A stretch of 64,000 bases of DNA from Gammaproteobacteria bacterium (GTDB taxonomy: Bacteria > Pseudomonadota > Gammaproteobacteria > DRLM01), in NCBI GenBank assembly GCA_023266095.1, contig JAHFRV010000001.1, positions 64,110 to 128,109 on the forward strand, given 5' to 3'. Position 1 is the stretch's first letter. Every line of letters begins with the position of its first letter. Position numbers and translations under genes: made by a program. Under the pieces are notes generated by a model that saw only the letters and a list, made by a program, of their open reading frames with translations, had not been told where the DNA came from and searched no databases. Below, in pieces: positions 920-52,213 of this stretch.

Positions 920-2602
<1,683 letters not shown>

Positions 2603-2991: not shown

Positions 2992-3017
2992 TAATGATAG
3001 TGGCGAAAACCTGAGAG

Positions 3018-3047
3018 TCAAGGTGGGGGGACGAAAAAAACTTCAAG
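3018..3047 (-). promoter_or_regulatory. Putative sigma32-type heat-shock promoter for groESL (-35 CTTGAAG, -10-like CCCCCACCT on the minus strand)
   Basis: Reverse complement reads CTTGAAG-N12-CCCCCACCTT, resembling sigma32 consensus CTTGAA / CCCCATNT; lies upstream of CIRCE. Confidence 0.35.
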
Positions 3048-3501: not shown

Positions 3502-3595
3502 GCGCGCCAAGGTACAGGGGTGGGCGGAGAAGCTCAAGGCGCGCGCATGGCCCCGGCGGCACACCCGCTGCCCTTCTCTGTTAATCTAGGCCACC

Positions 3596-31565: not shown

Positions 31566-32612
31566 TCATCTATACGGCGATGGCTGCGCATACGCCATCG
31601 GGTCCAACACCAACTGATTCAGACAGGCCGCGGGCGGCGGATTCCCCAGCCAGGTCGTCCACCCCAATTGTTCGCCGCCGCCCAGGCTCAAGCCGGGCGC
31701 CTCTTCCCGTTTGAGGATCAGATTCACATCAAAGGCGAACTCATCGCCCACGTAGTTGCGCACCCAATCCTCCAGGCGCCGCAGGCCGGCGGCACCCGGC
31801 AACAGGTGCCGGTACTGCGACAGGCTCAAGGGGCCGAACACCAGGCGGAATTTATGCTGGCAACTCCATACGCTCGCGCCGACCACGGCCGATACGCCGA
31901 GCACGCCGGATTCGCCGCTGCCGGCGAGGCGCCAGCGTTGTCCCGTCTCGAGTTGCAGCCACTCGCCGACGAACTGCTCGATCGCCACTGGCAGGCGAAA
32001 GAAATCGGCGAGGATGGCGCGCAGACCCACTGCATTGCGTGCGGCACGGGCGTGCTGCCCGACGTAATACAGCTTGGCCGCATCCGGTACCGCGTCACGT
32101 CCGCGCAGCGCCTCCTGGCCCAGCCCGCACAATGCGCCGATGTACAGCACGAAACGATCTTGCTCCGGTCTATCCTGATTCACCGCCGGCTGGGCATTGG
32201 CCCAACTGCGATAGAAAAAACACAACATGCGGTGATGAAACAAATCGAGAAAGCGGGCGAAGGTGGGATCGTTGGCATTGCGCACGCGCTGCCGCACATA
32301 TTCGGTGAGGTGCACCGGCAGCGGTCCGTGCGCACCCAGCAGACCAAAGAAGTTGACCTGCAACCGCGCCGCACTGTCCTCGGTGGCCGGCTCGAAAGCA
32401 GCCAGGGTCGAGGAGGCGAAGGCCAGCGTCGGCTCCTGACCCAGCCGCAGCACATCATCCGCCGGACGCTGCGATTGTCCGAAGCGCGGACTGGCGCGGA
32501 ACAAGCACTCCACCTGGCGCAGCGCCGCGAAGAAGCCGAATTCATACGGCGTCTCGTGCAGCGCGCTCGCCAGGGCTATAGCGTCGGGCGTCGACCAATC
32601 CGTGCCGGCCAT
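31566..32612 (-). CDS. tssG: T6SS baseplate protein TssG
   Basis: 348 aa with RLQVNFFGLLGAHGPLP TssG signature. Confidence 0.9.
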   Translation of the reverse strand: MAGTDWSTPDAIALASALHETPYEFGFFAALRQVECLFRASPRFGQSQRPADDVLRLGQEPTLAFASSTLAAFEPATEDSAARLQVNFFGLLGAHGPLPVHLTEYVRQRVRNANDPTFARFLDLFHHRMLCFFYRSWANAQPAVNQDRPEQDRFVLYIGALCGLGQEALRGRDAVPDAAKLYYVGQHARAARNAVGLRAILADFFRLPVAIEQFVGEWLQLETGQRWRLAGSGESGVLGVSAVVGASVWSCQHKFRLVFGPLSLSQYRHLLPGAAGLRRLEDWVRNYVGDEFAFDVNLILKREEAPGLSLGGGEQLGWTTWLGNPPPAACLNQLVLDPMAYAQPSPYR

Positions 32613-34450
32613 CGCTTGATCTCCCCGCGTTCCATGGTTCTTAACACCGTCTCGGTGAACGAGTTGAGCGAGACATAGTGTGCGAAAAATTCTTCGAGCA
32701 CGGCACCCAGTAAAAAGGCGCCGGTCCCTTCGAAGGCCGCGTCCTCGCAGGTGAGCGTGACCTCCAGGCCGCGACCGAAGGTGATCGGCCCCGGCGTGGG
32801 TATGCGGCGGGTGACGGGACGCGTCGCCACGGAGCGCACCCCTTCCACTTGCCGGCGCACTGTGGCCTCGCCGAGATCACCGTACAACATCAACAGGTCA
32901 CGCAGCCCCGCCGCGCCCTGGCGCTGGTCGCTATCCACCAAAGACAGATAATTGAGCGATAAATGGCTGATCAAATGCCACGCGGTCTCACCCTCGGCCC
33001 GCGGCGGCACGGGCTTCGTCGGCCCGGCCACACAACGGATGGCGCGGACGGGCGCCCCGCTCTCGAGCGTGAAATCGGTCTCGGATGTGCCCAGCACCAT
33101 GTGCAAGGGCAGGTCGCGGTTGGTGCACAGGCAGGTGATCGCGAGCTGGCGCAGATCATGGCGATAAGGCGCCTGCTCCGCATCCACCAGCGCGGCGAAG
33201 ACCTCCGTCCCGATATAACTCGAACGCGCCCCGTGCAAGCGCTGGTGTTCGGACAAGCGGCGCGGTTCGCGGTGCACCGTGTAATAGGCGGGGTGATTTA
33301 GCGCATGATTCACGTCGCTGGCCGCATAAAACGGCAGGAATTCCTGCTGCTCATCGGCGCGCGTGCCTATCCCGGCCATGCCGGTGACGGCATAGACCTC
33401 GAAATCCATCGGCCGGGTCCGATCCGGTACGACGTGATACTCGGTCTCGCGCGCCGAGAGATGGATACGATCGGCGCGCTTGGGAAAGAGATTGATCACC
33501 GGGGCACAGAACAACGCGAAATTATCACGGCCGACGCGATGATCGAGACTCGCGTCGGCCTGGTCGAAAAGCACGAAGATTTCCAGGCTATCACCCCGAC
33601 ACCGCCGCAACGCCGGCGTGAGGCCGCGCAGCTCGGCGAACAGAAAACGTTCGGGAAAGGCGAAGTATTCGTACAGCAAGCGATAGCCGTGGAAAGAGCG
33701 CGGCCCGCTCGGCAACAGGGCCTCGTGCTCTTCGAAGCCCATGCGCCCCACGCCGGGTCCGGCCACCACTTCGTCGTGCCGGTCATCGGGACCGGACCGC
33801 AGCACCAGCGCCACCGTGTTGGCGAGCAGCAGTTCATAGAGCCGGCGGCGCACATCGCTGCCGCCGCAGAGGTACAAGGGCAACCGGTCCAGCGCCAACT
33901 TGTCGATACTCAGCCCCGCCGTGACCTTAAATCGGAGTCGGATGCCGGCCTTGACGGCGCGCTCGCCGAAACGATCCGTCGCGGGCAGGTTGATGGCGTT
34001 GGGGACATACTCCGCCTGCACCAATTCCAACGGCCACAGGGTGACGTCATGCGCGGTGCGGTATTCGTTGCAGGTCTGTTCGCCTTTCGTCAGTAGGCTG
34101 CGCAAGGCACTCGCCCGCGGCACGACCACCCCGCTCGCGAGGCCGCCCTCGCCGAGGTCGGGCTGAAACTGCACCACCGCCATCGAAGGCGTGGGTGCGA
34201 GAAAATGCGGATACACCATCTCCAGCAGGTGTTGGGTGAAGCGCGGAAACTCCTGATCGAGCCGCAAGTGCACCCGCGCCGCGAGGAAGGAGAATCCCTC
34301 TAGCAGCCGCTCGACATAGGGGTCGGCGCACTCCATGCCCTCCATGCCAAGACGCCCGGCGATCTTCGGAAAGGCCTTGGCGAACTCCGCGCCCATCTCG
34401 CGCATGTATTGCAGTTCGCGGTTGTAGTAATCGAGGAGACGGGGATCCAT
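32576..34450 (-). CDS. tssF: T6SS baseplate protein TssF
   Basis: 624 aa MDPRLLDYYNRELQYMREMGAEFAKAFPKIAGRLG... Confidence 0.92.
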   Translation of the reverse strand: MDPRLLDYYNRELQYMREMGAEFAKAFPKIAGRLGMEGMECADPYVERLLEGFSFLAARVHLRLDQEFPRFTQHLLEMVYPHFLAPTPSMAVVQFQPDLGEGGLASGVVVPRASALRSLLTKGEQTCNEYRTAHDVTLWPLELVQAEYVPNAINLPATDRFGERAVKAGIRLRFKVTAGLSIDKLALDRLPLYLCGGSDVRRRLYELLLANTVALVLRSGPDDRHDEVVAGPGVGRMGFEEHEALLPSGPRSFHGYRLLYEYFAFPERFLFAELRGLTPALRRCRGDSLEIFVLFDQADASLDHRVGRDNFALFCAPVINLFPKRADRIHLSARETEYHVVPDRTRPMDFEVYAVTGMAGIGTRADEQQEFLPFYAASDVNHALNHPAYYTVHREPRRLSEHQRLHGARSSYIGTEVFAALVDAEQAPYRHDLRQLAITCLCTNRDLPLHMVLGTSETDFTLESGAPVRAIRCVAGPTKPVPPRAEGETAWHLISHLSLNYLSLVDSDQRQGAAGLRDLLMLYGDLGEATVRRQVEGVRSVATRPVTRRIPTPGPITFGRGLEVTLTCEDAAFEGTGAFLLGAVLEEFFAHYVSLNSFTETVLRTMERGEIKRWPARIGRRPTL

Positions 34451-34628: not shown

Positions 34629-34994
34629 TCAAGGCAAGAGCTTTTTTTCACCATCGCTGAATACCGCGTCGATGGAGTGAAGACCGCCCGGAACAGTGAG
34701 AACCAACGTCCCTTCACCAATATTTTTTGCCGGCAGCGCTACAGCACACTTTTCCTTGATGCCACAGCGTATGAATTGCAACTTTTGGCGCCCATCGCTC
34801 AGCCCGATATTTGCCCCTGGTGAATAATGAACAGACTCCAGCATTGGACGGTAGGTTACTTTAATAGCCCCATCCTTCTCCTGCACAACAGAGAGAATTT
34901 CAACGTCTGATAGTTTGTATTGATCCATGGCTTGCCCACAAGAAGAAATGGCCATCATCGAGCTTATCACTATAATGATGGAGAGCCTGTTCAT
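34629..34994 (-). CDS. Small lipoprotein (121 aa), candidate periplasmic immunity protein
   Basis: Signal peptide + lipobox ISSCG; start overlaps the stop of the upstream candidate effector (ATGA); AT-richer. Confidence 0.5.
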   Translation of the reverse strand: MNRLSIIIVISSMMAISSCGQAMDQYKLSDVEILSVVQEKDGAIKVTYRPMLESVHYSPGANIGLSDGRQKLQFIRCGIKEKCAVALPAKNIGEGTLVLTVPGGLHSIDAVFSDGEKKLLP

Positions 34995-35488
34995 TTGGCA
35001 CCCGCCTTTTTCTTCATAAAGCTCGATGCCGGGTTTTGCTGAAGTGGCTTAGGGCTGAAGAGAGTGGTTGGCTGCTGCTTCTCAAGCAGAAGGATGTTTC
35101 TACCCAACTCACGAGGGGTTTCGAATCCGCCATAGTCGTCCGCATCGACATCCTCTCCCACCACCTCTTCGACGACTTCGCTTGCCCATGACGCGCAGGT
35201 GTTGGTGTAGCGCCAAGCGACGTTAGCCTGCATAAGCGCATTGAAGTGCCTCGCCTGCGCATCTGAAAGCCCATACTATCGGCTGGCGACGGCCTTCTGA
35301 GCAGCCTCCATTCCAATTCTGATATCCGACTTGTCGCCGTTATCAAGCACGTTCGGATGAGCGTCTGGCCAGAGCCCATAGACCGTTGTCTTTCCATCGT
35401 GGGTAATCGCTAGCCATGCATGTCCAGCCGTAATATCCTTATCGTTCCCGGCATCATTACTATGTATTCCAAAAACCATATTCCCCAT
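34991..35488 (-). pseudogene. Candidate T6SS effector (~165 codons) interrupted by an in-frame amber (TAG) codon after codon 70; His-before-Cys permuted papain-like (NlpC/P60-LRAT-type) motifs
   Basis: ORF track gives two same-frame ORFs (35276..35488 and 34991..35233) separated by one TAG; strong SD (AAAGGGGGTGAAGA) before the first ATG; motifs GHAWLAI and YTNTCASWA. Confidence 0.45.
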
Positions 35489-35528: not shown

Positions 35529-36032
35529 CTAACCCGCGCGCTCGCTAATGGTGACTTTGCCCTCTTCGAGGTCCAGTTCGGTACGCAGGTACAGGCGCAG
35601 GGGGGTCGGCTGGGCCCACAACTCGCCCTCGATTTCGAACATCAGCGCGTTGTGGCTCTGGCTACGGGGGTCGGGGGCGTGGCGTATGCGCACGCTGTTA
35701 CGCAGGATGCGCGGCTCGTAATCCCACAAGGCCTGCCGCAAAATGCGCTCTACCATCAGCGGATCGATATTCGAGACCACCCGCCCCGAGATGTCCGGCA
35801 GGCCGTAGTTGAGTACCGAATGGCTAACCAGGGGGTAGGCCTCCAGATCTTCGACGGCGCTCAAATTGATGGAATTGAACAGCCAGGAGATATCACGCAG
35901 CACCGCGGCACGGAACTTGTGCAGGGAGAGCACGCGTTTGTCGCGCGCCTCTTGGCGGGTATCGCGCTCCTCATCGGTCAGGCGATCGAGCAGCGAGGGC
36001 TGGAGGCGTTCTTTTGATGTGAGTTCGGGCAT
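35529..36032 (-). CDS. tssE: T6SS baseplate protein TssE (gp25-like)
   Basis: 167 aa with LLDRLTDE signature. Confidence 0.9.
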   Translation of the reverse strand: MPELTSKERLQPSLLDRLTDEERDTRQEARDKRVLSLHKFRAAVLRDISWLFNSINLSAVEDLEAYPLVSHSVLNYGLPDISGRVVSNIDPLMVERILRQALWDYEPRILRNSVRIRHAPDPRSQSHNALMFEIEGELWAQPTPLRLYLRTELDLEEGKVTISERAG

Positions 36033-36160
36033 GTTGATCCGCGTTGATGTTGGTTTTTTAAGTTTCGCCGCTTTGCTCCGCTGGCTGTCGAGTTGGACAA
36101 TCGCGCCTCCAGCAGCGGATACTCACCCGCATCGGTGCCGAACATGCGTTGCCCCAAACC
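35957..36160. repeat. Direct repeat copy A (~204 bp, ~85% identity to copy B) spanning tssE 5' end, intergenic spacer and a residual tagJ 3' fragment
   Basis: Aligns with 37342..37546; encodes ...GEYPLLEARL tagJ-like remnant on the minus strand. Confidence 0.8.
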
Positions 36161-36311
36161 GGAGTCGACGGATGATAAGCAAATTCCACTTTTGCCAACG
36201 GGGTTTCTACAGCTCTCAACGCCGCCATTCAACCGGAGCGTGTCTTCACGATCGGCTGCTGCATTTCCAGCTGCGTACTTACGCTGGTACTCTTCTTCCT
36301 TGGTATTTCCT

Positions 36312-36716
36312 TCACTTTTTAACTGGCCTGCTGCCGGTGCACACGTCTCCCATGTCTATGCCATTTAGCCATTGCTCAAGAACCTTAATGCGGTCTGCCG
36401 TAAAGTCTCCCAATACTTGGCATCTGCACGTTGAATAAATCGAACCATACTCAGGGCTCGGGCCGTGAGGGTAGATTAGCTCTAATTGAGCTTCTTTGTA
36501 GGCCACCCAACTCTGTTGGGATTTTCTTAGCTTGCGAATGAATTGTTGATCATGCCTGTATTTCGAGATAAGTTGTTTGTAAATCGCAACTAACTTTGCC
36601 TCCGATGTTCTCAATTGGTTGCAGGTTGATTCTTCGGCCGTCTCGCCCGCAAAGCCAAAATAAGGATAGAAAAGTAGACTTGCGAATAACACAACACCTA
36701 TGTGAAGGGGTTTCAT
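36312..36716 (-). CDS. LprI/DUF1311-family (lysozyme-inhibitor-like) secreted protein, candidate immunity for the adjacent lysozyme effector
   Basis: Signal peptide; DUF1311 pattern C..Q..W..Y...C...C; directly downstream of the GH24 gene. Confidence 0.7.
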   Translation of the reverse strand: MKPLHIGVVLFASLLFYPYFGFAGETAEESTCNQLRTSEAKLVAIYKQLISKYRHDQQFIRKLRKSQQSWVAYKEAQLELIYPHGPSPEYGSIYSTCRCQVLGDFTADRIKVLEQWLNGIDMGDVCTGSRPVKK

Positions 36717-36725
36717 GATCTGTTC

Positions 36726-37220
36726 TCACTTGTTAAATAATTCCGTCTCTCTGCTGCGGCGCCTCGTTAGGCCAGCAAGTATTTTTCCAGAAGACTTATC
36801 GTAAAGTTTCATCTTATCTGGTACTTTCGATAGATCGAGTTTTCCATCTTTACCAGTGCAAGCGGCCAAAACGTTCGCCAGATTGCCCATCCCGACGTTG
36901 TATGTAAAAGAAACGAGGGCATCAAACTGGTTTTGTGTAAGAGTGGCCCCGAGCGCCCCCACCTTTGTATTGACTGCATCTTCTGCCGTCTTTGTATCCT
37001 TCGTTAATAGGCTATCCCCTTCGTTCTGAGTAATGCCCTTCTGAAAAATTTTCTCATTTTCTTTTCCATCGCATTTTCCCGGGTGAACCAAATGCCCCCA
37101 ACCGATGGTGCAATGACCGCCTCCATCGGTATCGTAGAGGTGGGCTTGAAAAGTCTCAAAATCTTGAATTAACTTTAGCCCCGCAGAGCCGAGGGTCATG
37201 CCTAGTGAAGTATTTGCCAT
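36726..37220 (-). CDS. GH24 phage-type lysozyme (muramidase), candidate T6SS peptidoglycan-targeting effector
   Basis: No signal peptide; LKLIQDFETFQAHLYDTDGGGHCTIGWGH (catalytic Glu/Asp/Thr spacing as in T4 lysozyme) and C-terminal RRRSRETELF. Confidence 0.8.
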   Translation of the reverse strand: MANTSLGMTLGSAGLKLIQDFETFQAHLYDTDGGGHCTIGWGHLVHPGKCDGKENEKIFQKGITQNEGDSLLTKDTKTAEDAVNTKVGALGATLTQNQFDALVSFTYNVGMGNLANVLAACTGKDGKLDLSKVPDKMKLYDKSSGKILAGLTRRRSRETELFNK

Positions 37221-37341
37221 TTAATCTTCTCCTGATTGAATGAGGTTGACCCATTACTAACGAATGGTTAGATCATTTGCAGGTGAACCTAATATTTCCC
37301 GTCTACAACAGTTGCAATGGCAGTCCTTTGGCAATGGAGCC

Positions 37342-37546
37342 GGGTATCGCGCTCCTCATCGGTCAGACGGTCGAGCAGCGAGGGCTGGAGGCGCTCTTTG
37401 GATGTAAGCTCGGGCATGACATCGATCCACCTTGGTGTTTATTAAGTTTCGTCGTCCTGCTCCGCCGGGCTGTCGAGCTGGATCAGCCGCGCTTCCAGCA
37501 ACGGATACTCACCCGTATCGGTGGCAAACATACGCTGCCCCAAACC
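37342..37546. repeat. Direct repeat copy B: intact tagJ 3' end plus a duplicated 26-codon tssE 5' fragment (MPELTSKERLQPSLLDRLTDEERDTR...) that runs into the lysozyme gene leader
   Basis: Aligns with 35957..36160; plus-strand ORFs at both loci share GIALLIGQ.VEQRGLEA. Confidence 0.8.
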
Positions 37547-38254
37547 AACAACATAGTCAGGTGCCAACGCCAGCCATTCGGTGCGCCGCGCCAGGCGTAT
37601 GCGCGCATCGTCGCTGTTTTCAGAGCCGGGGTAACGGGTCGGGATGAGTGCGACGGTTTCGCCGCCATTGGCAAAAGTGATATGCGCGGGCGCCCAGACC
37701 AGATCCCGCAAGTCGGCCGGCGCTTCGATATGCACGCTGCGCAGACGTTCGAACGGCACCCAGTAGTAACGCCCGTTGATGATGGCTTCGAGCATGGGCC
37801 CCAGGCGCGGATCGGCATCGGCGAACCAGGCGAAGTCTTGACGGTCGATGGCCCCCGCTATCGCGGTGGCCTGCTCGAAGGCCTCGGCGCGCAAGGACTG
37901 CGCACGCCCATACTGCCGCGCGGCATCCGTGCTCAAGGCCTCGATCAGCAGCGCCATCCACTGCTTCGGTTTGCCGAAGATCAGCGGCGAGTGCTCTCCC
38001 GCGAACACCCCGCGCCGCAACACTTCACAGCGCAGGGCCTCACGATAAGTCGATACCATGGCCAACGTGGCGGAATCCAACTCGCCGGCGACATTCAACT
38101 GGTTGAGTGCCCGATCCCAGTCGCCCATCACGGCCAACAACTGGAACAGAAACACCCGATGCTTGGCATCGGTCGGGGCCTTGCGCACCTCGGCCTGGAC
38201 TTCGGCCAGGGCATCGGCCAGTCGGCCGTCGTGGAGACTCATTTCTGCTGACAT
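37442..38254 (-). CDS. tagJ: T6SS accessory protein TagJ (ImpE/SciE family, TPR-like)
   Basis: 270 aa; size and position (between hcp and tssE) as for H1-T6SS TagJ1; ImpE-like sequence. Confidence 0.75.
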   Translation of the reverse strand: MSAEMSLHDGRLADALAEVQAEVRKAPTDAKHRVFLFQLLAVMGDWDRALNQLNVAGELDSATLAMVSTYREALRCEVLRRGVFAGEHSPLIFGKPKQWMALLIEALSTDAARQYGRAQSLRAEAFEQATAIAGAIDRQDFAWFADADPRLGPMLEAIINGRYYWVPFERLRSVHIEAPADLRDLVWAPAHITFANGGETVALIPTRYPGSENSDDARIRLARRTEWLALAPDYVVGLGQRMFATDTGEYPLLEARLIQLDSPAEQDDET

Positions 38255-38332: not shown

Positions 38333-38797
38333 CTAATCGAACAACTCCCAAAAAACATAACTGTCCCACTGAAAGGGTGGACAGGAAGCCACTAGATCCT
38401 TGTGCTGCGATATCTCAATACTCCGCCCAATCACCCGAATCGATCGAAGATGCGTCTCACAATCCCGCGACGTGGTGGGCTGGCGCTTTGAGGATTCGAT
38501 GAGAACATAACGATAGTCAGCTACCTCAACGATTCGGAAGTTCCCCGTCATGTCCCTGTGAAAATTGCATGGCCATGGAATATGCAGGTTGTAAATTTGG
38601 GTCTTGCCATCAGCAGTAGCGGCTGCAAAACAGGCTTCCCCGCGGCCCTCCAATCGTATCGAGAACTGACCTATGTTTAGCTCATCCTCTAAGTCATTTA
38701 TTTCACCCGCCGTACCACAGGATACGACGGCTAAACTAGTAATCGCGGCCATCACCAAACGCCTATGGATTTGACTCATGGCAGTTCCCAAAACCAA
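38333..38797 (-). CDS. Lipoprotein (154 aa), candidate Tai4-like immunity protein
   Basis: Signal peptide with VVSCG lipobox; 11 bp downstream of the Tae4-like gene; AT-richer. Confidence 0.5.
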   Translation of the reverse strand: MVLGTAMSQIHRRLVMAAITSLAVVSCGTAGEINDLEDELNIGQFSIRLEGRGEACFAAATADGKTQIYNLHIPWPCNFHRDMTGNFRIVEVADYRYVLIESSKRQPTTSRDCETHLRSIRVIGRSIEISQHKDLVASCPPFQWDSYVFWELFD

Positions 38798-38808
38798 ACC
38801 TGGGAAGA

Positions 38809-39207
38809 TTAGTTTGCCGGATCAGAAAACGTTTTTGTTAATCCTCGGTTCCATAAATCGATGTGATCGCCAGTTCTCGCGCGCTCGCCTGATCGCGCAA
38901 AGCAGTCTTTGAAGAAAATCATGCCAGCCTTGCGACTTAAAGCAATTTTGGCCTTGGCTCCCTCTGCATATATCATGGGCCGACCAAGACGATTTTTCCA
39001 AAGCCAGCTGGCCAACGACTCGGCTCCCCGAGCATGGCCATGACTGCATTTTGGCTCTGAATAAGTGTTTTTATTCACTTTGATTGTCTGCTCCGCGTTG
39101 AGGGCTATGCTCATACGAATTGAGCATTGGTTCTCCCAGTTGTCGTCGCACGGAAAAGATTCTGTTGGGTAGTTTGACCACAAATTAATGAAGCTGGGTT
39201 TTGACAT
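38809..39207 (-). CDS. tae4: Tae4-family T6SS peptidoglycan amidase effector (papain-like Cys-His)
   Basis: MSKPSFINLW..., ...NQCSIRMS..., ...GDHIDLWNRG... match the Tae4 N-terminus, catalytic Cys and His motifs; start set at Met with SD spacing 9. Confidence 0.7.
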   Translation of the reverse strand: MSKPSFINLWSNYPTESFPCDDNWENQCSIRMSIALNAEQTIKVNKNTYSEPKCSHGHARGAESLASWLWKNRLGRPMIYAEGAKAKIALSRKAGMIFFKDCFARSGERARTGDHIDLWNRGLTKTFSDPAN

Positions 39208-39299
39208 GTGACTCATCCTTCCCTGGGAAGAGGGCGATTTTAGCACTCCCACAAACCGCAGGATTTCCCTGGGGAGCGGCCGCAGCGCCGCTTCATAAC

Positions 39300-39339: not shown

Positions 39340-39825
39340 TCAGAGCTTCTTGTTGGCGGAGATGTCCCACTTGAATTGCTTGGGCGCCTCGCCGGTGCCG
39401 TCGTCCTTCTGCTGAACATAGTCGACGTTGACTTCGGCGAAATTCAGCGAGACGTTCTCGGTGAGGCGGTCCTCACCGCCGCTGCCGCCGGTGGCTACCG
39501 AACTCACCATCACTTTCTTCATCACTATCTTGATGTATTCGAGCGGCCCCTTACCACCGGCCTTGCGGACCACCAGCGTGGCGTCCGGTATGTGCTCGCC
39601 GCTCGCACAATAGAGCATCAGCAGGGGCGAAGCCACGTCCACCCACTTGGTCAAGGTCAGGTCGTTGAAGTTGGCCTTGCCCGCGCCACCGCCGCCGCCG
39701 CTCTGAAAAGAACCCGACTGCGACAGCCCCCAACTCCAGGCCAATACATCGATCTCACCTTTGTGTTTGTCATCCGTCGACTCGCCCTTGATACCCGCAA
39801 CCTTGATGAACATATCTACGGCCAT
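39340..39825 (-). CDS. hcp: T6SS inner tube protein Hcp
   Basis: 161 aa MAVDMFIKVAGIKGESTDDKHKGEIDVLAWSWG... Confidence 0.95.
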   Translation of the reverse strand: MAVDMFIKVAGIKGESTDDKHKGEIDVLAWSWGLSQSGSFQSGGGGGAGKANFNDLTLTKWVDVASPLLMLYCASGEHIPDATLVVRKAGGKGPLEYIKIVMKKVMVSSVATGGSGGEDRLTENVSLNFAEVNVDYVQQKDDGTGEAPKQFKWDISANKKL

Positions 39826-39906: not shown

Positions 39907-41406
39907 TCAACCACCACCTTTGACGGATGGCAACTTCGATACCAGTCGCAACGATACGGTCAGCCCCTCCAACTGATAATGAGGGCGCAAATAAAATTTG
40001 GACGAGTAATATCCTGGATTGCCCTCCACTTCTTCCACCACCACCTCGGCCGCCGCTAGCGGTCGCTGCGCCTTGGTAGTCTCGCTGGAATGCTCGGGAT
40101 CGCCATCGACGTACTGCATGATCCACCCCTGCAACCAGCGTTGCATCTCCTCCCGGCTCTTGAACGAGCCGATCTTGTCGCGGACGATGCATTTGAGGTA
40201 GTGCGCAAACCGGCAGATCGCGAACAAATAGGGCAGACGCGCGGCCAGGTTGGCGTTGGCTGTGGCATCCGGATCGGTATACTCCGCCGGTTTTTGCAGC
40301 GACTGTGCGCCGATGAAGGCGGCGAAATCGCTGTTCTTGCGATGGAGCAGCGGCATGAAGCCGTTTTTGGCCAGCTCCGCCTCGCGCCTATCACTGATTG
40401 CGATCTCGGTCGGACACTTCATGTCGACACCGCCGTCGTCGGTGGGGAAGGTGTGTGCCGGCAATCCTTCGACCGCGCCGCCGGACTCCACACCGCGGAT
40501 GCGCGAACACCAGCCATACAGTTTGTAGGAGCGATTGATGTTGACCGCCATCGCATATGCCGAATTGGCCCAGGTGTATTTGTCGTGCCGCGCGCCCTCG
40601 ACATCTTCTTCGAAATCGAATTCCTCGACGGGCTGGGTCTTCGCCCCATAAGGCAGGCGCGCCAGAAACCGCGGCAGGACCAGACCGATGTAACGTGCGT
40701 CCTCCGATTCACGCAACGAGCGCCAAGCGGCATATTCCGGAGTAGTGAATATCTTGGTGAGGTCGCGGGGATTACTGAGTTCCTGCCAGCTGTCCATTTG
40801 CATCACCGCGGGCGCGGCGCCGGCGATGAACGGCGCATGGGCCGCCGCCGAGATCTGGGCGATCTCACCCAGCAACTCGACATCCGGCGGGCTGTGATCA
40901 AAATAGTAGTCGCTCACCAGACACCCATAAGGCTCGCCGCCGAATTGCCCGAATTCCTGCTCATAGAGCTTTTTGAATATCGGGCTCTGATCCCATGCCG
41001 TACCCTTGAAGGTCTTTAACATCTTGGCGAGTTCCGCCTTGGAGATGTTCATCACCCGGATCTTTAGCATTTCGTCCGTTTCGGTATTGTTGACGAGATG
41101 ATGCAGCCCTCGCCATGCGCTCTCTATTTTCTGAAAATCGGCATGATGCAATATCTGATTAATCTGCTGACTGAGCTTTTTGTCAATTTCGGCGATGAGG
41201 GACTGAATAGTCTGCGAGACATCGGGCGAGATGATCACGGCACCGCGCAGCGCCTGCTCGGCCAGGGTGCGCACCGCGCCTTCGACTTCCTCACGCGAAC
41301 GTTCGCTCTTGGGCCGGAATTCCTTCTCTAGGAGTGTGGCGAAGTCACCGACTGCCGCCACCGACGACGCCGACGGGGCTTGGGTTTGAGTTTGCGGATC
41401 CGCCAT
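39907..41406 (-). CDS. tssC: T6SS sheath large subunit TssC
   Basis: 499 aa VipB/TssC family. Confidence 0.95.
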   Translation of the reverse strand: MADPQTQTQAPSASSVAAVGDFATLLEKEFRPKSERSREEVEGAVRTLAEQALRGAVIISPDVSQTIQSLIAEIDKKLSQQINQILHHADFQKIESAWRGLHHLVNNTETDEMLKIRVMNISKAELAKMLKTFKGTAWDQSPIFKKLYEQEFGQFGGEPYGCLVSDYYFDHSPPDVELLGEIAQISAAAHAPFIAGAAPAVMQMDSWQELSNPRDLTKIFTTPEYAAWRSLRESEDARYIGLVLPRFLARLPYGAKTQPVEEFDFEEDVEGARHDKYTWANSAYAMAVNINRSYKLYGWCSRIRGVESGGAVEGLPAHTFPTDDGGVDMKCPTEIAISDRREAELAKNGFMPLLHRKNSDFAAFIGAQSLQKPAEYTDPDATANANLAARLPYLFAICRFAHYLKCIVRDKIGSFKSREEMQRWLQGWIMQYVDGDPEHSSETTKAQRPLAAAEVVVEEVEGNPGYYSSKFYLRPHYQLEGLTVSLRLVSKLPSVKGGG

Positions 41407-41409: not shown

Positions 41410-41949
41410 TTATTCCTCCTTGGGTGCCGCTGATTCGCCGGCTTGCGACTCGGGTTTGGGCTTGGGTGCGGATGCCAAGGCTTGCAGCAGCACCGGATCC
41501 TGTAGCAGTTTCGCCACCAGTTCCTCTGCGCCGCTCTTGCCATCCATATATGTAATGAGATTGGCCAACTGTGTGCGCGCCTCCAGCAACTGATTCAGCG
41601 CGCCCACTTTGCGCGCCACCGCCGCGGGCGAGAAGTCGTCCATGCTGTCAAAGGTGATATCGACGTTGAGATTGCCCTCACCGGTGAGCGTGTTCGGCAC
41701 CTGAAAAGCGACGCGCGGTTTCATCGCCTTGAGCCGCTCATTGAAATTGTCGACGTCGATTTCCAAAAACTTGCGGTCGGCCACCGGCGGCAAGGCCTCG
41801 GCGGGTTTGCCCGACAAATCGGACATCACCCCCATCACGAACGGCAGCTGAATCTTTTTTTCGGCGCCGTAGAGTTCGACGTCGTATTCGATCTGTACCC
41901 GCGGGGCGCGGTTCCGAGCGATGAATTTCTGACTGCTCATTTTCGCCAT
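41410..41949 (-). CDS. tssB: T6SS sheath small subunit TssB
   Basis: 179 aa; ...PRVQIEYDVELYGAEKKIQLPFVMGVMSDLSGK... Confidence 0.95.
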   Translation of the reverse strand: MAKMSSQKFIARNRAPRVQIEYDVELYGAEKKIQLPFVMGVMSDLSGKPAEALPPVADRKFLEIDVDNFNERLKAMKPRVAFQVPNTLTGEGNLNVDITFDSMDDFSPAAVARKVGALNQLLEARTQLANLITYMDGKSGAEELVAKLLQDPVLLQALASAPKPKPESQAGESAAPKEE

Positions 41950-42021: not shown

Positions 42022-43038
42022 TTAATTCGGCTGTTTTGCTCCCAGACCGCCGATGAGCTCGATCCGCGCCATGGCATCGGGCGTCAGATCGCGAACGATA
42101 TCGACGAAACTCTTCGAGACCAACTGCTTCGCCCGCCGCAACAAAAGGGGTACGGGGCTGGAGGGCTCCCACTCATCATAGTACGCGCAAATCATGTCCA
42201 GGTTGATGATGACGTCTTGCCGGTTCCGAATGGAACTTGTCGATATTTGCCGCGCCAGTGTTTGATGGACCCCCGCGACGCTGGCCGCCACGGCCTCCCC
42301 GGCTAACGGGACGGCCAGCACGGTCTCGATCTGTTGCAGCAAACCGCGCACGCCACCCAGCTCAGGAACACGTTCGGCTCCCACCTTCTCTGCCAGCAAG
42401 GCGCCTATTTCCCGCACATACTGCAGCGCGTCTCGCGAGGCGGCATAGAGCTGCTGACGAAGCACGGGCTCAGCGGCGGCGAGCGCCGCATCGATCTCGG
42501 CCCGGACCGGCGGCAGCGGAGTACCCCCCGCCATGGGAAGCAGGCCGTGCGCCATCAACAGCGTGCGCACATCGAGACGGCCCAGACCGGGCAGGGTCAG
42601 CAAAAACGCTTCGCGGACGCCACGCAGCATGACAGGGTCATTGAGCCCCGCCAAGGCATTGAGCCGGAGAGCAGGATCGTTATTATCAGCGGGATCGAGC
42701 TGGGGGTGTACCTGATCCCAATAGTCTTTAAGCAGACCGTGGGTGACAGCGAGGCCGTCGCGCAGCCCTTCGAGACCGGCGGTATGCGCCGCCGCCGCGG
42801 TAAGATGCAGGGCGACGCGCAGGTCTTTGGTTCGAGTGAATACCTCGAGGGCGCGGCGCTGTACGTCTTGCCAATCCGGCTCCACGGCCGGAATGACCGT
42901 CTCGCCGTATTGCTGTTCCGGCTTGGCGACGGCGGCGCGTGCAAGCTCGGTATACGCCGCGTCATATTCAAGATTTTGGCCGCAGGGCGCCTGGAGAGAT
43001 ATCTCCCGTAGCAGCTTCTCTGTATCGATCGCACCCAT
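42022..43038 (-). CDS. tssA: T6SS protein TssA (short TssA1-type, ImpA N-domain)
   Basis: 338 aa; ...QAPCGQNLEYDAAYTEL... ImpA_N motif. Confidence 0.85.
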   Translation of the reverse strand: MGAIDTEKLLREISLQAPCGQNLEYDAAYTELARAAVAKPEQQYGETVIPAVEPDWQDVQRRALEVFTRTKDLRVALHLTAAAAHTAGLEGLRDGLAVTHGLLKDYWDQVHPQLDPADNNDPALRLNALAGLNDPVMLRGVREAFLLTLPGLGRLDVRTLLMAHGLLPMAGGTPLPPVRAEIDAALAAAEPVLRQQLYAASRDALQYVREIGALLAEKVGAERVPELGGVRGLLQQIETVLAVPLAGEAVAASVAGVHQTLARQISTSSIRNRQDVIINLDMICAYYDEWEPSSPVPLLLRRAKQLVSKSFVDIVRDLTPDAMARIELIGGLGAKQPN

Positions 43039-43715: not shown

Positions 43716-44486
43716 TTATACACGCGTGAAAAAATCCACCACCAACGCCGTGAGGTTGTCGCGCGCACGGCGTGCCAGCGCCGCGTCGATGAGAGCTTGG
43801 CACGCCGCGCTGCATTTACCGCGAGCGAGCAGCGCCTCGAGTTCCGTCGCCGCGAGCTCACGATACAAGCCATCACTGCACACCAGATAACGATCGCCTT
43901 CCTCGAGCGCTCGCAGCTCCATGTCCAGATGCAACAGCGGCTCGGCGCCGACGGCACGGGTGACGATATTCGCCGCCGGATGCCTATCGGCCTCTTCTTC
44001 AGACAAAAAACCTTGCGTCACCCATTGCTGGATCTGGCTGTGGTCACGGGTGATCTGTTGCAAGGTACCTGCACGCAAACGATACACCCGGCTGTCGCCG
44101 GCCCACATGCTGAGGCAATGACGCCTGTGCGCGAGCAGCACCGCCACCGTGCTGCCCATCACGGTGGGCGGCTGCTGGCCCGCGGCCAGATCGTGCATCA
44201 GCCGATTGGCGGCGAACAGGCGTTGTTCGACCTCATCAACCAGTGCGCTGAAATTGACGTGGGACTGGACCGCGGCCAGCTGCTCGACGATCGTGCGACT
44301 CGCCACATCGCCGGCGTGATGTCCACCCATGCCATCGGCCACGGCCCACAGACCACACTCGGCGCGTTCCAGAAACGCGTCCTCGTTGATGGTGCGCACC
44401 TTACCGACATGGGTGGCGGCCGCGGAAATCCACTGAAACGGAAACAACTGGTTCATGTATCCCACTGCCTTAAGATGGAGCCTCAC
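43716..44486 (-). CDS. pppA: PP2C-type Ser/Thr phosphatase PppA (TagG)
   Basis: 256 aa; ...AVADGMGGHHAGDVASR... PPM motif. Confidence 0.85.
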   Translation of the reverse strand: MRLHLKAVGYMNQLFPFQWISAAATHVGKVRTINEDAFLERAECGLWAVADGMGGHHAGDVASRTIVEQLAAVQSHVNFSALVDEVEQRLFAANRLMHDLAAGQQPPTVMGSTVAVLLAHRRHCLSMWAGDSRVYRLRAGTLQQITRDHSQIQQWVTQGFLSEEEADRHPAANIVTRAVGAEPLLHLDMELRALEEGDRYLVCSDGLYRELAATELEALLARGKCSAACQALIDAALARRARDNLTALVVDFFTRV

Positions 44487-45228
44487 CCCCGTCGGATGCC
44501 GCCGTCAGCGGCACCGCCCAATCCTGCCACGACCTGCGCCGCCACTCGCCGGCCAGCATGGCGGCGTAACCCTCGGCGGGCGGCAGTCCCGAACAGATCA
44601 ATAACGAAGGCTCGATCAATTCAGAACCGCTACTCCACCACAGACTATACGGCCCCCACTGCCGCACCAGCAATTGCCCGAGCAGTCCGGGCATCACCGC
44701 CGCCACGCCATTCACCATCGGCAGAGCGACCCGGCACGCGCCTATCGGCGCCGCGCCGTAAGCCTCTTCATGCGATAGATTCAACTCCGGCAGCGGTCCC
44801 AGCGTCATCGCGCGCGCGGCCAGTGTCTCGGGATCGCAAGCCTCTTCCTCCAGCACAGCTTGCATCAGCTCTTCGGCCTTATCGAACCAGGCCGTTGCCT
44901 GCTGCGCCACGGACACCAGGGCCGCGCCGGCGGTCAGCGGAGCGGCGAGGGTCAGGGGGAAATAACGTCCCACCCGATCGACGCTGGGCATCACTACCCC
45001 CGCCCACGCCGAGCTCCCGCACACCTGCGGCGACAAGACGAAACGCCACATCGGGCTTTCGAGATAGATCTTAAGCCAGTGCTCGCCGAGTTGCTGGCGA
45101 CTGCAGGCGATCGCGCGCTGCAGCCAACCGTCCCAAGGTTCGACGAAGGCGCGCGGCAGCGCGCGGGTGACGAAATCGCCCAAGCTCGGCAGCTTGCCGT
45201 GGAAACCGGGCAGGCCAAGCGCGGTCAC
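44470..45228 (-). CDS. tagF: T6SS-associated protein TagF (ImpM/DUF2094)
   Basis: 252 aa; MTALGLPGFHGKLPSLGDFVTR... TagF signature; overlaps pppA start. Confidence 0.85.
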   Translation of the reverse strand: MTALGLPGFHGKLPSLGDFVTRALPRAFVEPWDGWLQRAIACSRQQLGEHWLKIYLESPMWRFVLSPQVCGSSAWAGVVMPSVDRVGRYFPLTLAAPLTAGAALVSVAQQATAWFDKAEELMQAVLEEEACDPETLAARAMTLGPLPELNLSHEEAYGAAPIGACRVALPMVNGVAAVMPGLLGQLLVRQWGPYSLWWSSGSELIEPSLLICSGLPPAEGYAAMLAGEWRRRSWQDWAVPLTAASDGGEAPS

Positions 45229-45230
45229 GG

Positions 45231-48200
45231 CTACAACCTCGCCGGGCAGCGAAAGGCCTGCACGTCTTTATTGACGAAAGGATTGAACACACTGCTGGCC
45301 TGGAGCTCATAGCGCGCCTTGCGGCCCTCGACCTCGAAGCTCACGGCGATGCGATCCGGAGCCAGCACCTCGACCCGCGACTGATCCAGCACCCGGAACC
45401 AGGCCCAGGTTCCTTCTTTGCTCAGGCTCGCACGCTGCCCGCCGCCTTCGAATATCACCCGGGTCTGGGGCGGACCGGCACTGCCGGGCCACTGCGCAGA
45501 CTCGGGGCGGGCAGGACCATGGCGGTAAGTAAACTGCTGGCCATCGATGTCCAGCAGGAACTGGCTGACCTCGGCATCGAGATAGAGCGGCTTGAGCGCA
45601 AAACGCACCCCTGGCCGGTTGCCGCCACCTTGAAAATAAGTCTGTTTGATCGCCTGGGCACGGCGGAACTGGCGCAAGGCCTCGTCGGAGAACACCAGCC
45701 CCGCTCCCGCGGCGACACGCCATTGTCCTCCCGAGGTATCGATGAAGGGCTGAAGATTCTCCATGAAAAACTTGTCGAGCAGCCCGCCGGGGCCGAAGAG
45801 CTGAGCGAAGTCGTCCAACGTGACTTCGCGCGTACCGTTGGGGAAAAACGGATAGCGACCGGCCAAGGCCCGCTCGCATTGCGGCAAGATCGTGCCCGTC
45901 CATTTCGCGTTGAGTTCGCCGCGCGCCCCGCCCACGGTCGCCGCGCGGCTACCGCCGCCCAACTCCGCCAGCCAAGCGCTGAGCGGCGCGGGCTGGCGGG
46001 CGGCCTCGATCTGCACCCGCCGCAGAATGTCGCCGCCACCCTGCTGCGCCGCTTGTAGGCTCGCGCCGGGCAGTGCTCCGCTCAGACTATTGAGATAGCC
46101 ATACAGATCCGACAGCAGCGCCATCACCTGATCGAGCGGCGGCGCGCCGCCCTCACCACGCACCAGCCGGCTGAGGCGGACATAGTGGCGCTCGATGACT
46201 TGTTCCGGCGGCAATTCGGCGACCTCGGTCTTCTTACCCGTCAAACCCTCGACCAGGCGCGAAAGCTGGGTCTTCTCGGCCGCCTGCTTGGCGAGATCGC
46301 CGACCGTCTTCTTGCCGCCGGGCCGCTCCGTCAAGGTGGTGTTGCGCACCACGGCATCCAGCAGCGCCCGCAGCGGCGAAGTCGGTCCCGACAGGATGCC
46401 CACCACCTCGGCCGCCTGGCCCACACTGGTGAAGGGTACGATACGCAGGTCGCTCAGCAGTTCGTCCCAGTAGCGTTCATAATCGGCCTGATACAGTTTG
46501 TTGATATTGGTTTCGAGCTCCTGCAACTCCGCCTGGCTCAGCGGATGCTCCGCCGTACCCAACACCCAGCTCTCGTCCTGGATCTGGCGGGCGCGATCCT
46601 CGCTCTGTGGCAGATAGACCTCGTAATAGCCGCGATAGGTATATAACCCCGGTATGGGTGCATCCAAGCCCGCGCCGCTCTTGCGCGCAAACACTTTTTG
46701 GCCGGACTCGCCCACCACATCGATCACCCGGAAAGGGATTTCGTCCCGCGCGAGATAATCGCGCTTGAGACGGCCGTAGACCAATTGCGCCAAGGACACC
46801 TGACGCAAACCCAGCCGCGCATCGTGCACCAGACCTTGGTCCAAGCCGACGGGCCGCACGCCTTCCTTGAGTAGGGTCTGAAAATGCTCCTCGAGCGGGC
46901 CATATTGATTGGGCGGCAGCGTAGTCTCCCAATCCAGACTCATCCACGCCCCCAGTTGGGCCGGATCCAAACGCGCCGGCACATTAAGCATGAGATAAAG
47001 TTTGAGCAGCTGATACTGTGCATCGGGATTACCCGCCGCCGCGCGCAACTGCTGTTCGATGCGCGTCGCGACCCGGGGTCGCAGCAGGGCATTGAGTTCA
47101 CGCACATAGGCATCCTGCGCACTCTCGCCGATGGCATTACCCTGATAAAGCCATAATCGCATATACCACGGCACATGGTCGGCATGGGCCTGTGCCATGG
47201 CAACCACCTGTTTGAGTGCATCCAGCCGCGGCAGCAGCGCACTGAAGTCCGCGTCATCCGGCAAGAGTTTGTTTGCTTCCGCTTGATAAGCGGCCAGGCT
47301 GGCCTGCACCTCGCCGACATAACGCTTGTTGGCGGTAAAGCTCGCCGACCAGGCGACGGCCGCGACCACGGTGACGAGCAGCGCCGCGGCATAGGCGCCG
47401 CGTTGCAACCAGGCACGCTGGATCTCGAAGCGCCGGTTGCTGCCGACGATGCGCGCTTCCGGAAACACCACCCGTTTGAGCAGATCGGTCAAAAAATAAC
47501 TGCGGCCGTGGCCGGTGAACGAGGCCAGCATCTGACGTTCTAGCCTGAAGGTACGGGCGACACCGGCGACCAGCCGGTCGATGGGTGCGCCCTCTTGAGT
47601 GCCGCTGGTAAAGTAGACGCCGCGCAGCAGGCTCGCCTCTTCGAAACGACTGACGCCGAATACCGCCCGCAGAAATTCGCTCATGGCCGGTTTGAGCGCG
47701 GCCAGCTGCTGCGGAAAACCGTAGATCAAGGCACGCCGCTGCAAATCGCGCTCCTGCTGCAAACGCGGCCACAGGCGCTGATCCAGCCGCGTCATCAACG
47801 CGTCGAACTCGGCGCCGAACTGATCCACCGCGCCGGCCTCGCTCGCGGCGAGCGCAAAGCTCATGCCCCACACCTGGGCCCGCTCCTCCTTGCCGAGGTC
47901 TTCGAAAAACTCGGTGAAGCCCGCCAGCAAGTCGCATTTGGTGAACATGAAATAGACGGGGAAACGCACGCCCAGCGACTGCCGCAATTCGAGGATACGT
48001 TGATGGATGGCGCGCGCATGCGCCAGGCGTTCTTCGGGGCTTTGGGTCAAAAGATCGGCAAGGCTCATTGCTACCAGTGCGCCATTGATGGGCTGCCGCC
48101 GCCGATATTTCTTCAATAAGCCGAGAAAACCTTGCCAGGCGGCGCTGTCAACCGCAGCCTGACTGTCTTGGGTGGTATAGCGTCCGGCGGTATCGAGTAA

Positions 48201-48737
48201 CACTGCTTCGTTGGTGAACCACCAGTCGCAGTTGCGCGTGCCGCCGACGCCGCGCACCGCATCCTTGCCGTAACGCTCCGCCAGCGGGAATTCCAGGCCG
48301 GAATTGCGCAGCGCCGTGGTCTTGCCGCTACCGGGCGGACCGATGATGATGTACCAGGGCAAGTCATACAGACTGGGGCCCTGGCCTTTGCGCGCCGCCT
48401 TCTTGAGCAGGCTGACCGCCTCTTCGAAGCGCTCCTTCAAGGCGGCCACCTCTTCCACCGACTGCGTCTCTTCGGGGGAGGGCGGGGGTGCTTGCGAAAT
48501 GCCCTGCATGATCTGCTCGCTCGCCTTCGCGGCGCGCAGACGCTTCCAGAGCCGATGCAGCCCGAAGCCGAGGAACACTAGGCCGATGCACACCAGCCGG
48601 GCGATCAGTCCTTCCAGCGGCCGGTAATCGGCGAAGGCGAGATAAGGCCCTGCGAACAGGATGATTAGGGCGAGCGCGCTCAGGCCCAGCAGCGTCATCA
48701 CCCAACGTCGTTTGAAAATACCCAAGAGTTTTTTCAT
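45231..48737 (-). CDS. tssM: T6SS membrane complex protein TssM (IcmF)
   Basis: 1168 aa; N-terminal TMs, Walker A GPPGSGKTT, IcmF-related domains. Confidence 0.95.
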   Translation of the reverse strand: MKKLLGIFKRRWVMTLLGLSALALIILFAGPYLAFADYRPLEGLIARLVCIGLVFLGFGLHRLWKRLRAAKASEQIMQGISQAPPPSPEETQSVEEVAALKERFEEAVSLLKKAARKGQGPSLYDLPWYIIIGPPGSGKTTALRNSGLEFPLAERYGKDAVRGVGGTRNCDWWFTNEAVLLDTAGRYTTQDSQAAVDSAAWQGFLGLLKKYRRRQPINGALVAMSLADLLTQSPEERLAHARAIHQRILELRQSLGVRFPVYFMFTKCDLLAGFTEFFEDLGKEERAQVWGMSFALAASEAGAVDQFGAEFDALMTRLDQRLWPRLQQERDLQRRALIYGFPQQLAALKPAMSEFLRAVFGVSRFEEASLLRGVYFTSGTQEGAPIDRLVAGVARTFRLERQMLASFTGHGRSYFLTDLLKRVVFPEARIVGSNRRFEIQRAWLQRGAYAAALLVTVVAAVAWSASFTANKRYVGEVQASLAAYQAEANKLLPDDADFSALLPRLDALKQVVAMAQAHADHVPWYMRLWLYQGNAIGESAQDAYVRELNALLRPRVATRIEQQLRAAAGNPDAQYQLLKLYLMLNVPARLDPAQLGAWMSLDWETTLPPNQYGPLEEHFQTLLKEGVRPVGLDQGLVHDARLGLRQVSLAQLVYGRLKRDYLARDEIPFRVIDVVGESGQKVFARKSGAGLDAPIPGLYTYRGYYEVYLPQSEDRARQIQDESWVLGTAEHPLSQAELQELETNINKLYQADYERYWDELLSDLRIVPFTSVGQAAEVVGILSGPTSPLRALLDAVVRNTTLTERPGGKKTVGDLAKQAAEKTQLSRLVEGLTGKKTEVAELPPEQVIERHYVRLSRLVRGEGGAPPLDQVMALLSDLYGYLNSLSGALPGASLQAAQQGGGDILRRVQIEAARQPAPLSAWLAELGGGSRAATVGGARGELNAKWTGTILPQCERALAGRYPFFPNGTREVTLDDFAQLFGPGGLLDKFFMENLQPFIDTSGGQWRVAAGAGLVFSDEALRQFRRAQAIKQTYFQGGGNRPGVRFALKPLYLDAEVSQFLLDIDGQQFTYRHGPARPESAQWPGSAGPPQTRVIFEGGGQRASLSKEGTWAWFRVLDQSRVEVLAPDRIAVSFEVEGRKARYELQASSVFNPFVNKDVQAFRCPARL

Positions 48738-52196: not shown

Positions 52197-52213
52197 CCCG
52201 TTACCGTCCGTGT

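Follow-up and report, generated by a model that had tools for sequence, protein, structure and literature searches.

A duplicated tagJ-tssE junction flanks a lysozyme-LprI cassette in a type VI secretion operon: probable horizontal capture of a candidate effector/immunity pair

In a type VI secretion system (T6SS) operon of an uncultured gammaproteobacterium, a cassette of two genes, encoding a lysozyme of glycoside hydrolase family 24 (GH24) and an LprI/DUF1311 protein, lies between tagJ and tssE and is flanked by two diverged direct copies of the tagJ-tssE junction itself. The DNA analysed, referred to here as the window, is a 64,000-nt stretch of contig JAHFRV010000001.1 from the metagenome-derived assembly GCA_023266095.1 (Gammaproteobacteria bacterium). 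We consider it probable that this GH24/LprI effector/immunity cassette was captured horizontally, by homology-anchored recombination with a related T6SS allele. The pathway of the capture, like the co-transcription, secretion route, toxicity and immunity discussed below, we infer from sequence. A first-pass annotation of the same DNA had read the arrangement as the scar of an insertion, and the repeat, the empty junctions of related operons, the foreign composition of the insert and the modularity of the gene pair all favour that interpretation.

The two genes that border the cassette are intact. The tagJ gene (37442-38254, minus strand, as is every gene in the region) encodes a T6SS accessory protein of 270 aa (Pfam ImpE, PF07024, E = 4.1e-47), and tssE (35529-36032) encodes a gp25-like baseplate subunit of 167 aa (Pfam GPW_gp25, E = 4.3e-19; NCBIfam TIGR03357, 79.9 bits against a cut-off of 53.2). 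These profile matches, with those of the two cassette genes given below, agree with the gene names assigned in the first-pass annotation, and the orientation of the genes also makes its use of upstream and downstream correct along the direction of transcription. Each copy of the junction comprises the last 34 codons and stop of tagJ, a spacer of 24-25 nt and codons 1-26 of tssE; the spacer and the tssE part are as first described, and the tagJ part is longer than the roughly 25 codons then proposed. The upstream copy, R1 (37342-37546, minus strand), contains the working tagJ tail with its TAA, a 24-nt spacer holding the Shine-Dalgarno-like sequence AAGGTGGA, and a stub of tssE codons 1-26. The downstream copy, R2 (35957-36160, minus strand), contains an orphan tagJ tail (36058-36160), a 25-nt spacer and codons 1-26 of the real tssE. 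The orphan tail had been called decayed, and the decay consists of two 1-nt deletions.

The homology of the two copies is not due to chance. When the interval from 26 to 45 kb was compared with itself by blastn (word size 7), 35956-36160 matched 37341-37546 at 83.3% over 210 columns (E = 4.5e-56), and this was the sole off-diagonal match in the interval; no third copy was found by blastn within the window. The match resolves into three collinear direct-repeat blocks of 78 nt (92%), 59 nt (88%) and 32 nt (81%) with a start-to-start spacing of 1384-1386 bp. In a MAFFT alignment 174 of 209 columns are identical, or 87.0% if the nine gap columns are left out, and the longest identical runs are 25 and 23 nt. 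The tssE stub opens an open reading frame (ORF) of 42 aa (37289-37417, minus strand), which public contigs annotate as a gene; its 26 TssE codons give the same peptide as those of the real tssE and are followed by 16 unrelated codons and a stop. This stop lies 68 nt ahead of the lysozyme ATG, so the stub does not read straight into the ribosome-binding site (RBS) of the lysozyme gene, as had been proposed. When the two Shine-Dalgarno regions are compared (36033-36057 and 37418-37441), the non-functional stub has the better one, AAGGTGGA at 8 nt ahead of its ATG, and the functional tssE has the Shine-Dalgarno-like GCGGA at 5 nt.

The pattern of differences between R1 and R2 suggests where the second copy came from. 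Codons 1-26 of tssE encode MPELTSKERLQPSLLDRLTDEERDTR in both copies and differ at seven sites, all of them third positions and all synonymous. The tagJ tails differ by ten synonymous and five non-synonymous changes, in addition to the two deletions in the orphan copy, which gives 17 synonymous and five non-synonymous codon differences in total. By the Nei-Gojobori method, synonymous divergence (dS) is 0.48 and 0.62, and non-synonymous divergence (dN) 0 and 0.07, in the tssE and tagJ fragments respectively. Because the differences are almost all synonymous, the two copies appear to have diverged as parts of working genes in two lineages and to have been joined recently, and this allele-like divergence therefore favours recombination with foreign homologous DNA. 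The two copies also have in common a derived stop position and the spacer, which is absent in the outgroup, and the donor would therefore be a close, roughly congeneric relative.

A direct repeat that exactly brackets an insert is also the classic picture of a target duplication. The 205-bp junction might have been duplicated in place when the insertion occurred, as a target-site duplication or through a staggered break or template switch, or a small tandem duplication might have preceded it and the cassette have landed in the new joint; the difference of 13-17% would then be later decay, of which the orphan tagJ tail, with its two deletions, does show signs. Had one copy been neutral since a duplication in place, however, the observed dS would imply some 14 and 23 non-synonymous changes in the two fragments, and none of the seven differences in the tssE stub alters the peptide. 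In a conditional test with one copy constrained and the other neutral, which we regard as conservative, the probability of at least 17 synonymous changes among 22 is 3.5e-4. The repeat is moreover far longer than the target duplications made by transposases, terminal inverted repeats are absent, and neither a transposase nor an integrase gene is nearby. We therefore think duplication in place unlikely.

Comparison with related operons indicates that the tagJ-tssE junction is normally empty. When species-representative genomes were scanned with TagJ, 39 T6SS loci from Gammaproteobacteria, Betaproteobacteria and Planctomycetota proved usable (TagJ identity 49-62%), and a search of 5.8 billion proteins gave the nearest TagJ sequences, at 71% and 67% identity. 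The contigs that carry the latter (L052-L054) are the nearest relatives at every gene, with identities to the window of 92-95% for TssC, 83-84% for Hcp, 79-82% for TssE and 78% for TssF. Across the 42 related loci, in which TagJ is 50-71% identical to that of the window, the order hcp-tagJ-tssE-tssF-tssG-clpV is retained in every case. The projected gap between tagJ and tssE is 13.5 bp at the median and at most 278 bp in these loci, compared with 1409 bp in the window, and in L052-L054 the two genes overlap by 13 nt. The empty site is thus the rule in all 42 loci, and the different cassette that the first-pass annotation had envisaged as an alternative at this junction was found in none of them.

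The same loci bear on the possibility that a whole tagJ-tssE pair was once duplicated in tandem, that both copies were functional long enough to diverge under purifying selection, and that a subsequent insertion and deletions left only tssE(1-26) of the first copy and tagJ(236-270) of the second. Such a history would produce mostly synonymous differences with no need for a foreign junction, and 11 of the related loci do have tandem Hcp paralogues in the hcp-tagJ interval. None of the 42, however, has a second tagJ or tssE, and more events are needed: the duplication, a long period in which both copies were maintained, the insertion and two precise deletions. This makes an ancient tandem duplication a distinctly improbable origin.

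As the sequence is of metagenomic origin and the two copies resemble alleles of two strains, an assembly might also have joined two T6SS operons into a chimera through an unrelated low-GC fragment. Exact-protein look-ups of TagJ, TssE, the lysozyme and LprI placed them on three public contigs only, all 100% identical to the window and all probably from one sample; the look-ups returned no variant contig without the cassette. The arrangement is nevertheless identical in the assemblies of three pipelines (Logan, ENA k141 and a 129-kb NCBI record), and the joints leave tagJ and tssE intact and in frame around a coherent same-strand cassette with its RBSs. De Bruijn assemblers tend to collapse or break at repeats, and would not be expected to build an ordered 83% duplication around a 1.2-kb insert. 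We regard an artefact as very improbable, the least credible of the explanations considered here.

The DNA between the two copies, as first described a segment of 1.18 kb, is 1181 bp long (36161-37341) and has a GC content of 0.46. Its two genes are 9 nt apart on the same strand. GC content at third codon positions (GC3) is 0.47 in the lysozyme gene and 0.48 in the LprI gene, compared with 0.71-0.80 in 13 T6SS core genes, and the intervening DNA is compositionally foreign. The flank on the left of the cassette (37221-37341, minus strand, 121 bp, GC 0.42) contains the lysozyme RBS, AGGAG, and has no homologue among other lysozyme-LprI loci; the 151-bp right flank (36161-36311, minus strand, GC 0.52) has none elsewhere. 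No terminator- or promoter-like sites above shuffle expectation were found, and the 151-nt stretch downstream of lprI is no more stably folded than shuffled sequences (z = 0.67). Since the cassette is on the operon strand and no terminator is predicted, it is probably read through together with tagJ and tssE. Two kinds of mobile element were considered and rejected. A transposon or insertion sequence with a target-site duplication does not fit a repeat of 205 bp at 83%, an insert with no transposase-like ORF and the lack of inverted repeats, no pairs of which were found in 35-38.5 kb. An integron cassette was set aside on the same lack of inverted repeats, on the fold of the 3' flank and on the fact that the cargo slots in 26-45 kb share no sequence with each other.

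The first gene of the cassette (36726-37220, minus strand) encodes a GH24 muramidase of 164 aa. It matches Pfam Phage_lysozyme (PF00959) with E = 4.7e-28 and 98.5 bits (cut-off 22.3), residues 20-158 aligning with profile positions 2-125 of 125, and it is also matched by the PDB lysozymes 9kbq, 6et6 and 8b2s with E-values from 7e-21 to 2.5e-11. The stretch DFE22-TFQAHLYD30TD32GGGHCT38IGWGH of its translation aligns with the FE...YD.DG...TIG motif of 9kbq. The catalytic Glu-Asp-Thr motif (E11/D20/T26 of T4 lysozyme) thus appears to be present as E22, D30 or D32, and T38, with the choice between D30 and D32 as the counterpart of T4 D20 made by eye. The protein has no signal peptide or membrane anchor, is almost wholly GH24 domain, and carries none of the delivery markers looked for (PAAR, a VgrG fusion, MIX/FIX/WHIX); no adaptor gene lies next to it. 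A lysozyme with no marker is compatible with cargo of the Hcp lumen, which carries no sequence marker, and we regard the protein as a candidate Hcp-borne T6SS effector.

The second gene (36312-36716, minus strand) encodes a protein of 134 aa that matches Pfam LprI (PF07007) with E = 3.9e-12 and 46.9 bits (cut-off 22), residues 31-113 aligning with profile positions 18-106 of 106. Its N-terminus, MKPLHIGVVLFASLLFYPYFGFA/GE, was judged by eye to be a signal peptide, since the n-region is basic, the core hydrophobic and the residue at -1 small. We regard it as a candidate periplasmic immunity protein, and the pair, lying between tagJ and tssE, has the bicistronic toxin-plus-immunity layout linked to a T6SS.

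Homologues of the lysozyme, 50-86% identical and about 160 aa long, make up a group of their own, and the partner accompanies the lysozyme in other genomes. In all of seven other, unrelated neighbourhoods (homologues 67-86% identical) a PF07007 gene lies directly 3' of the lysozyme gene. One lies at the end of a further T6SS cluster (L044) and one in a toxin-antitoxin island (L045-47); four are housekeeping contexts (L048-51, L138, L139 and L140/141), and the last is a short Logan contig known from gene calls only. Phage genes were found beside the pair in none of the seven. The lysozyme-LprI pair is thus a modular unit, and strict adjacency in eight of eight contexts is suggestive of inhibition of the lysozyme by its neighbour. 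With the nearest cassette, that of L138, DNA similarity (73.7%) sets in 2 nt ahead of the lysozyme ATG and ends 12 nt short of the lprI stop, and in comparison with six other lysozyme-LprI loci no cassette boundaries are shared, DNA homology ending with the coding region. A metagenome scan with the lysozyme gave only matches of 28-53% identity, mostly phage-type, and missed the close homologues.

Flanking repeats also occur near homologous cassettes in L138 and L045. Those of L138 were rejected as a gene-junction duplication, as they look like dispersed elements of the repetitive extragenic palindromic (REP) type: three REP-like palindromic copies (2105-2181, 2683-2758 and 3991-4071) bracket this closest homologue of the pair (86%). 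The L138 lysozyme gene (2932-3366) has an in-frame TGA where the window has a Gly codon (…DKSS*KILVG…) and may be a decaying copy. In L140 a 133-bp direct repeat (2137-2269 and 3408-3538, 88%) of the kduI 3' end lies about 2.5 kb from the lysozyme-LprI cassette and flanks an inserted, oppositely oriented methyltransferase gene. Its second copy is a 60-aa KduI C-terminal fragment whose changes are mostly conservative, and the repeat is the same kind of duplicated-gene-end scar, here outside any T6SS.

The cassette may have been acquired and the lysozyme may still not be an effector. T6SS assembly requires local cleavage of peptidoglycan, and the enzyme might remodel the wall for that purpose, as MltE and TagX do, or it might be a domesticated phage endolysin with a regulator, the GH24 fold being typical of phage endolysins. 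A lysozyme with no signal peptide or anchor would not, however, reach the periplasm alone, and it is the partner that has a signal peptide. In the seven contexts the pair lies mostly at a distance from T6SS genes and in none of them beside phage genes, and the 42 related T6SS operons all do without such a gene. The cluster in the window has Tae4, Tlde1 and Tse2-like toxins in equivalent low-GC slots. A non-effector role is therefore doubtful in our opinion. As a T6SS effector the muramidase would most likely be delivered into the periplasm of rivals, possibly as cargo of the Hcp lumen, and would there cut peptidoglycan, and the periplasmic LprI/DUF1311 protein would protect the producer.

Taken as capture from a related allele, these observations can be arranged as follows. 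The cassette would have entered an H1/i3-like T6SS operon, compact in other respects, at its tagJ-tssE junction, on DNA from a related, roughly congeneric lineage with its own tagJ-tssE junction. One side of the event would have been a homologous exchange, with illegitimate joints at tssE codon 26/27 and tagJ codon 235/236, either by homology-facilitated illegitimate recombination or by single-crossover integration of a circular molecule consisting of the junction and the cassette. Both tagJ and tssE would have remained intact, each with its own translation start context. The cassette would have been left with a tssE stub on its upstream side and, on its downstream side, an orphan tagJ tail that subsequently gained its two frameshifts. 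In a two-step version, an illegitimate landing in tssE or tagJ would have been tolerated as the immunity gene was useful, and the broken gene would then have been repaired with the related allele.

Several points weigh against horizontal capture of an effector cassette as we have described it. A simple double crossover with a cassette-bearing donor gives no duplication, so that at least one illegitimate event must be assumed. The divergence statistics are drawn from 59-60 codons, the differences between R1 and R2 could not be polarised informatively with the nearest outgroup (L052-54), and the identity profile shows no breakpoint inside TagJ. The donor lineage is absent from the databases searched, in which the next-best TagJ is 71% identical, and no allele with an empty site or another cassette was found above 82% TssE identity. 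The three public contigs represent a single genotype in three assemblies, and the effector status of the pair is deduced from genomic context. Lastly, a word-7 blastn comparison covering the slots in 26-45 kb, and tblastn, found no flanking repeats at the other four cargo slots of the cluster, and the mechanism is therefore not demonstrably general. Gene-by-gene ranks are ambiguous: relative to the nearest relative TagJ (71%) is less conserved than TssE (82%), the reverse of the trend in distant loci, and ClpV, aligned in part (243 aa, 80%), is relatively divergent too.

Similar events have been proposed for Vibrio cholerae, where homology-facilitated illegitimate recombination would account for the insertion of effector-immunity modules (Kirchberger et al. 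2017, PMC5361080). As in that case (PMC5361080), a foreign effector-immunity pair enters a T6SS cluster with conserved neighbouring sequence as an anchor and with no integrase. In V. cholerae what is left of the earlier occupant, namely 3' ends of effector genes and orphan immunity genes, is shifted downstream and lies at the cluster's end, whereas here a structural-gene junction is duplicated in the middle of an operon, nothing is displaced and both structural genes are intact; in addition, the allele-like synonymous divergence of the copies is seen directly here. Arrays of orphan toxin/immunity modules downstream of rhs and cdiA genes are also formed around direct repeats of a conserved coding segment that flank acquired DNA, and recombination between them can swap or delete modules. 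In those arrays the repeated segment is within the toxin gene, whereas here the machine genes tagJ and tssE supply it and the candidate effector is a free-standing small protein.

LprI-domain proteins have been proposed as immunity partners of lysozyme-like T6SS effectors (PMC9796082, PMC8867033, PMC12135965), with predicted pairs in Pantoea hcp islands and in Salmonella pathogenicity island (SPI) 19 of Salmonella Dublin (PMC9796082, PMC8867033) and DUF1311/LprI described as an immunity domain (PMC12135965). The present pair resembles these in that a gene for a peptidoglycan hydrolase, in or near a T6SS cluster, precedes a PF07007 gene with a signal peptide. The Pantoea enzyme is a lysozyme-like protein and that of SPI-19 is of the LysM/transglycosylase type, whereas the present one is a minimal GH24 domain of 164 aa; in all three, cognate inhibition is a prediction only. 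Small cargo effectors are also encoded between T6SS core genes in Salmonella SPI-6, namely Tae4-Tai4 and Tlde1. As there, small effectors acting in the periplasm and an adjacent immunity gene would be encoded among the structural genes, and the present cluster itself has Tae4- and Tlde1-family genes. We know of no description of a flanking structural-junction duplication for the SPI-6 cargo effectors, and our literature searches found no published duplication of a tagJ-tssE junction. Whitney and colleagues reportedly described in 2013 a muramidase effector-immunity pair of the Pseudomonas aeruginosa H1-T6SS, Tse3/Tsi3 (Tge1/Tgi1). That system is likewise a tagJ-containing, H1-like T6SS, in which a muramidase delivered to the periplasm is neutralised by a periplasmic immunity protein, but the Tge and Tgi families have no sequence relation to GH24 or LprI, and their genes lie outside the structural operon.

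To judge from its genes, the cluster is a tagJ-containing, H1/i3-like T6SS in which all core genes checked are present and intact. In the direction of transcription, upstream of tagJ, it contains tssK (50865-52349), a Tlde1-family gene (50363-50848), tssL (48740-50050), tssM (45231-48737), tagF (44470-45228), a PP2C phosphatase gene (43716-44486), tssA (42022-43038), tssB (41410-41949), tssC (39907-41406), hcp (39340-39825), and a Tae4-family gene with a signal-peptide ORF (38333-39252). The lysozyme and LprI genes and tssE are followed by three small ORFs (34629-35488), tssF (32576-34450), tssG (31566-32612), a gene for a Tse2-like ADP-ribosyltransferase (31003-31491) and clpV (27947-30697). 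Just outside the cluster (22066-24684, minus strand) is a gene for an 872-aa protein with DUF7948, SBBP beta-propeller repeats and DUF11, which has internal DNA repeats spaced about 190-615 bp apart.

Four further junctions between core genes hold low-GC cargo, with GC3 of 0.46-0.63 compared with 0.71-0.80 in the core (30700-31500, 34629-35488, 38333-39252 and 50363-50848). The tssG-clpV slot has the Tse2-like ADP-ribosyltransferase and a 76-aa ORF, the tssE-tssF slot the three small ORFs, the hcp-tagJ slot Tae4 and the signal-peptide ORF, and the tssK-tssL slot a protein with a Tlde1 domain; no flanking repeat was found at the three of these slots that lie inside the self-compared 26-45 kb. 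Related clusters are compact at four junctions, the tssK-tssL junction lying outside the fetched loci, and the exceptions are Hcp paralogues at hcp-tagJ in 11 loci and cargo in L052. In the closest relative the hcp-tagJ junction (seen in the sister contig L053) and the tagJ-tssE junction are empty. The 11 clusters with an extra Hcp (L019, L022, L023, L025, L028-L032, L036 and L038) are mostly betaproteobacterial, and their second, divergent Hcp-like gene (29-36%) lies between hcp and tagJ, about 500-700 bp upstream of tagJ, where the window has Tae4/Tai4-like genes.

In the tssE-tssF slot two ORFs of 70 and 80 aa (34991-35488, minus strand) are in one frame and separated by a single in-frame stop (…KAVASR*YGLSDAQ…NTCASWASEVV…). 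They look like a candidate effector of about 165 aa interrupted by a nonsense codon, or by a sequencing error. An intact, lipoprotein-like ORF of 121 aa (34629-34994, minus strand) follows and is possibly a retained immunity gene; neither it nor the split ORF has a Pfam or NCBIfam match. The same slot is filled in L052, where about 2.1 kb of small unannotated ORFs (1390-3473) lie between tssE and tssF, and this junction may be a recurrent cargo slot in the lineage.

We put forward a broader idea as speculation with little weight: the duplicated junction may be, rather than an isolated accident, the footprint of an integrase-free pop-in/pop-out exchange of effectors, in which circular molecules of a gene junction and an effector/immunity cassette integrate by a single crossover at the conserved junction with the machine genes always preserved, the five low-GC slots of the cluster being older, healed products. 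If this were true, circles excised between junction copies would spread among related T6SS operons.

The gene content described here is a further member of an already predicted lysozyme/LprI kind, and the scar is a variant of known T6SS module-exchange scars, one in which a structural-gene junction is duplicated and both machine genes are preserved. As it comes from a single uncultured genotype, it is an illustrative case and provides no general rule. The entry of effector/immunity genes into tightly packed T6SS operons is usually inferred from presence and absence, and here the joints are still readable. The mostly synonymous divergence of the two junction copies suggests that part of the T6SS operon of a related lineage came along with the cassette, which points to the homology of machine genes as a vehicle for the exchange of weapons, and would explain how an insertion between adjacent genes, overlapping in the nearest relatives, left both of them intact. 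The arrangement predicts a precise excision product at low frequency, and the minimal GH24 and LprI pair can be nominated as a widespread mobile candidate effector/immunity module.

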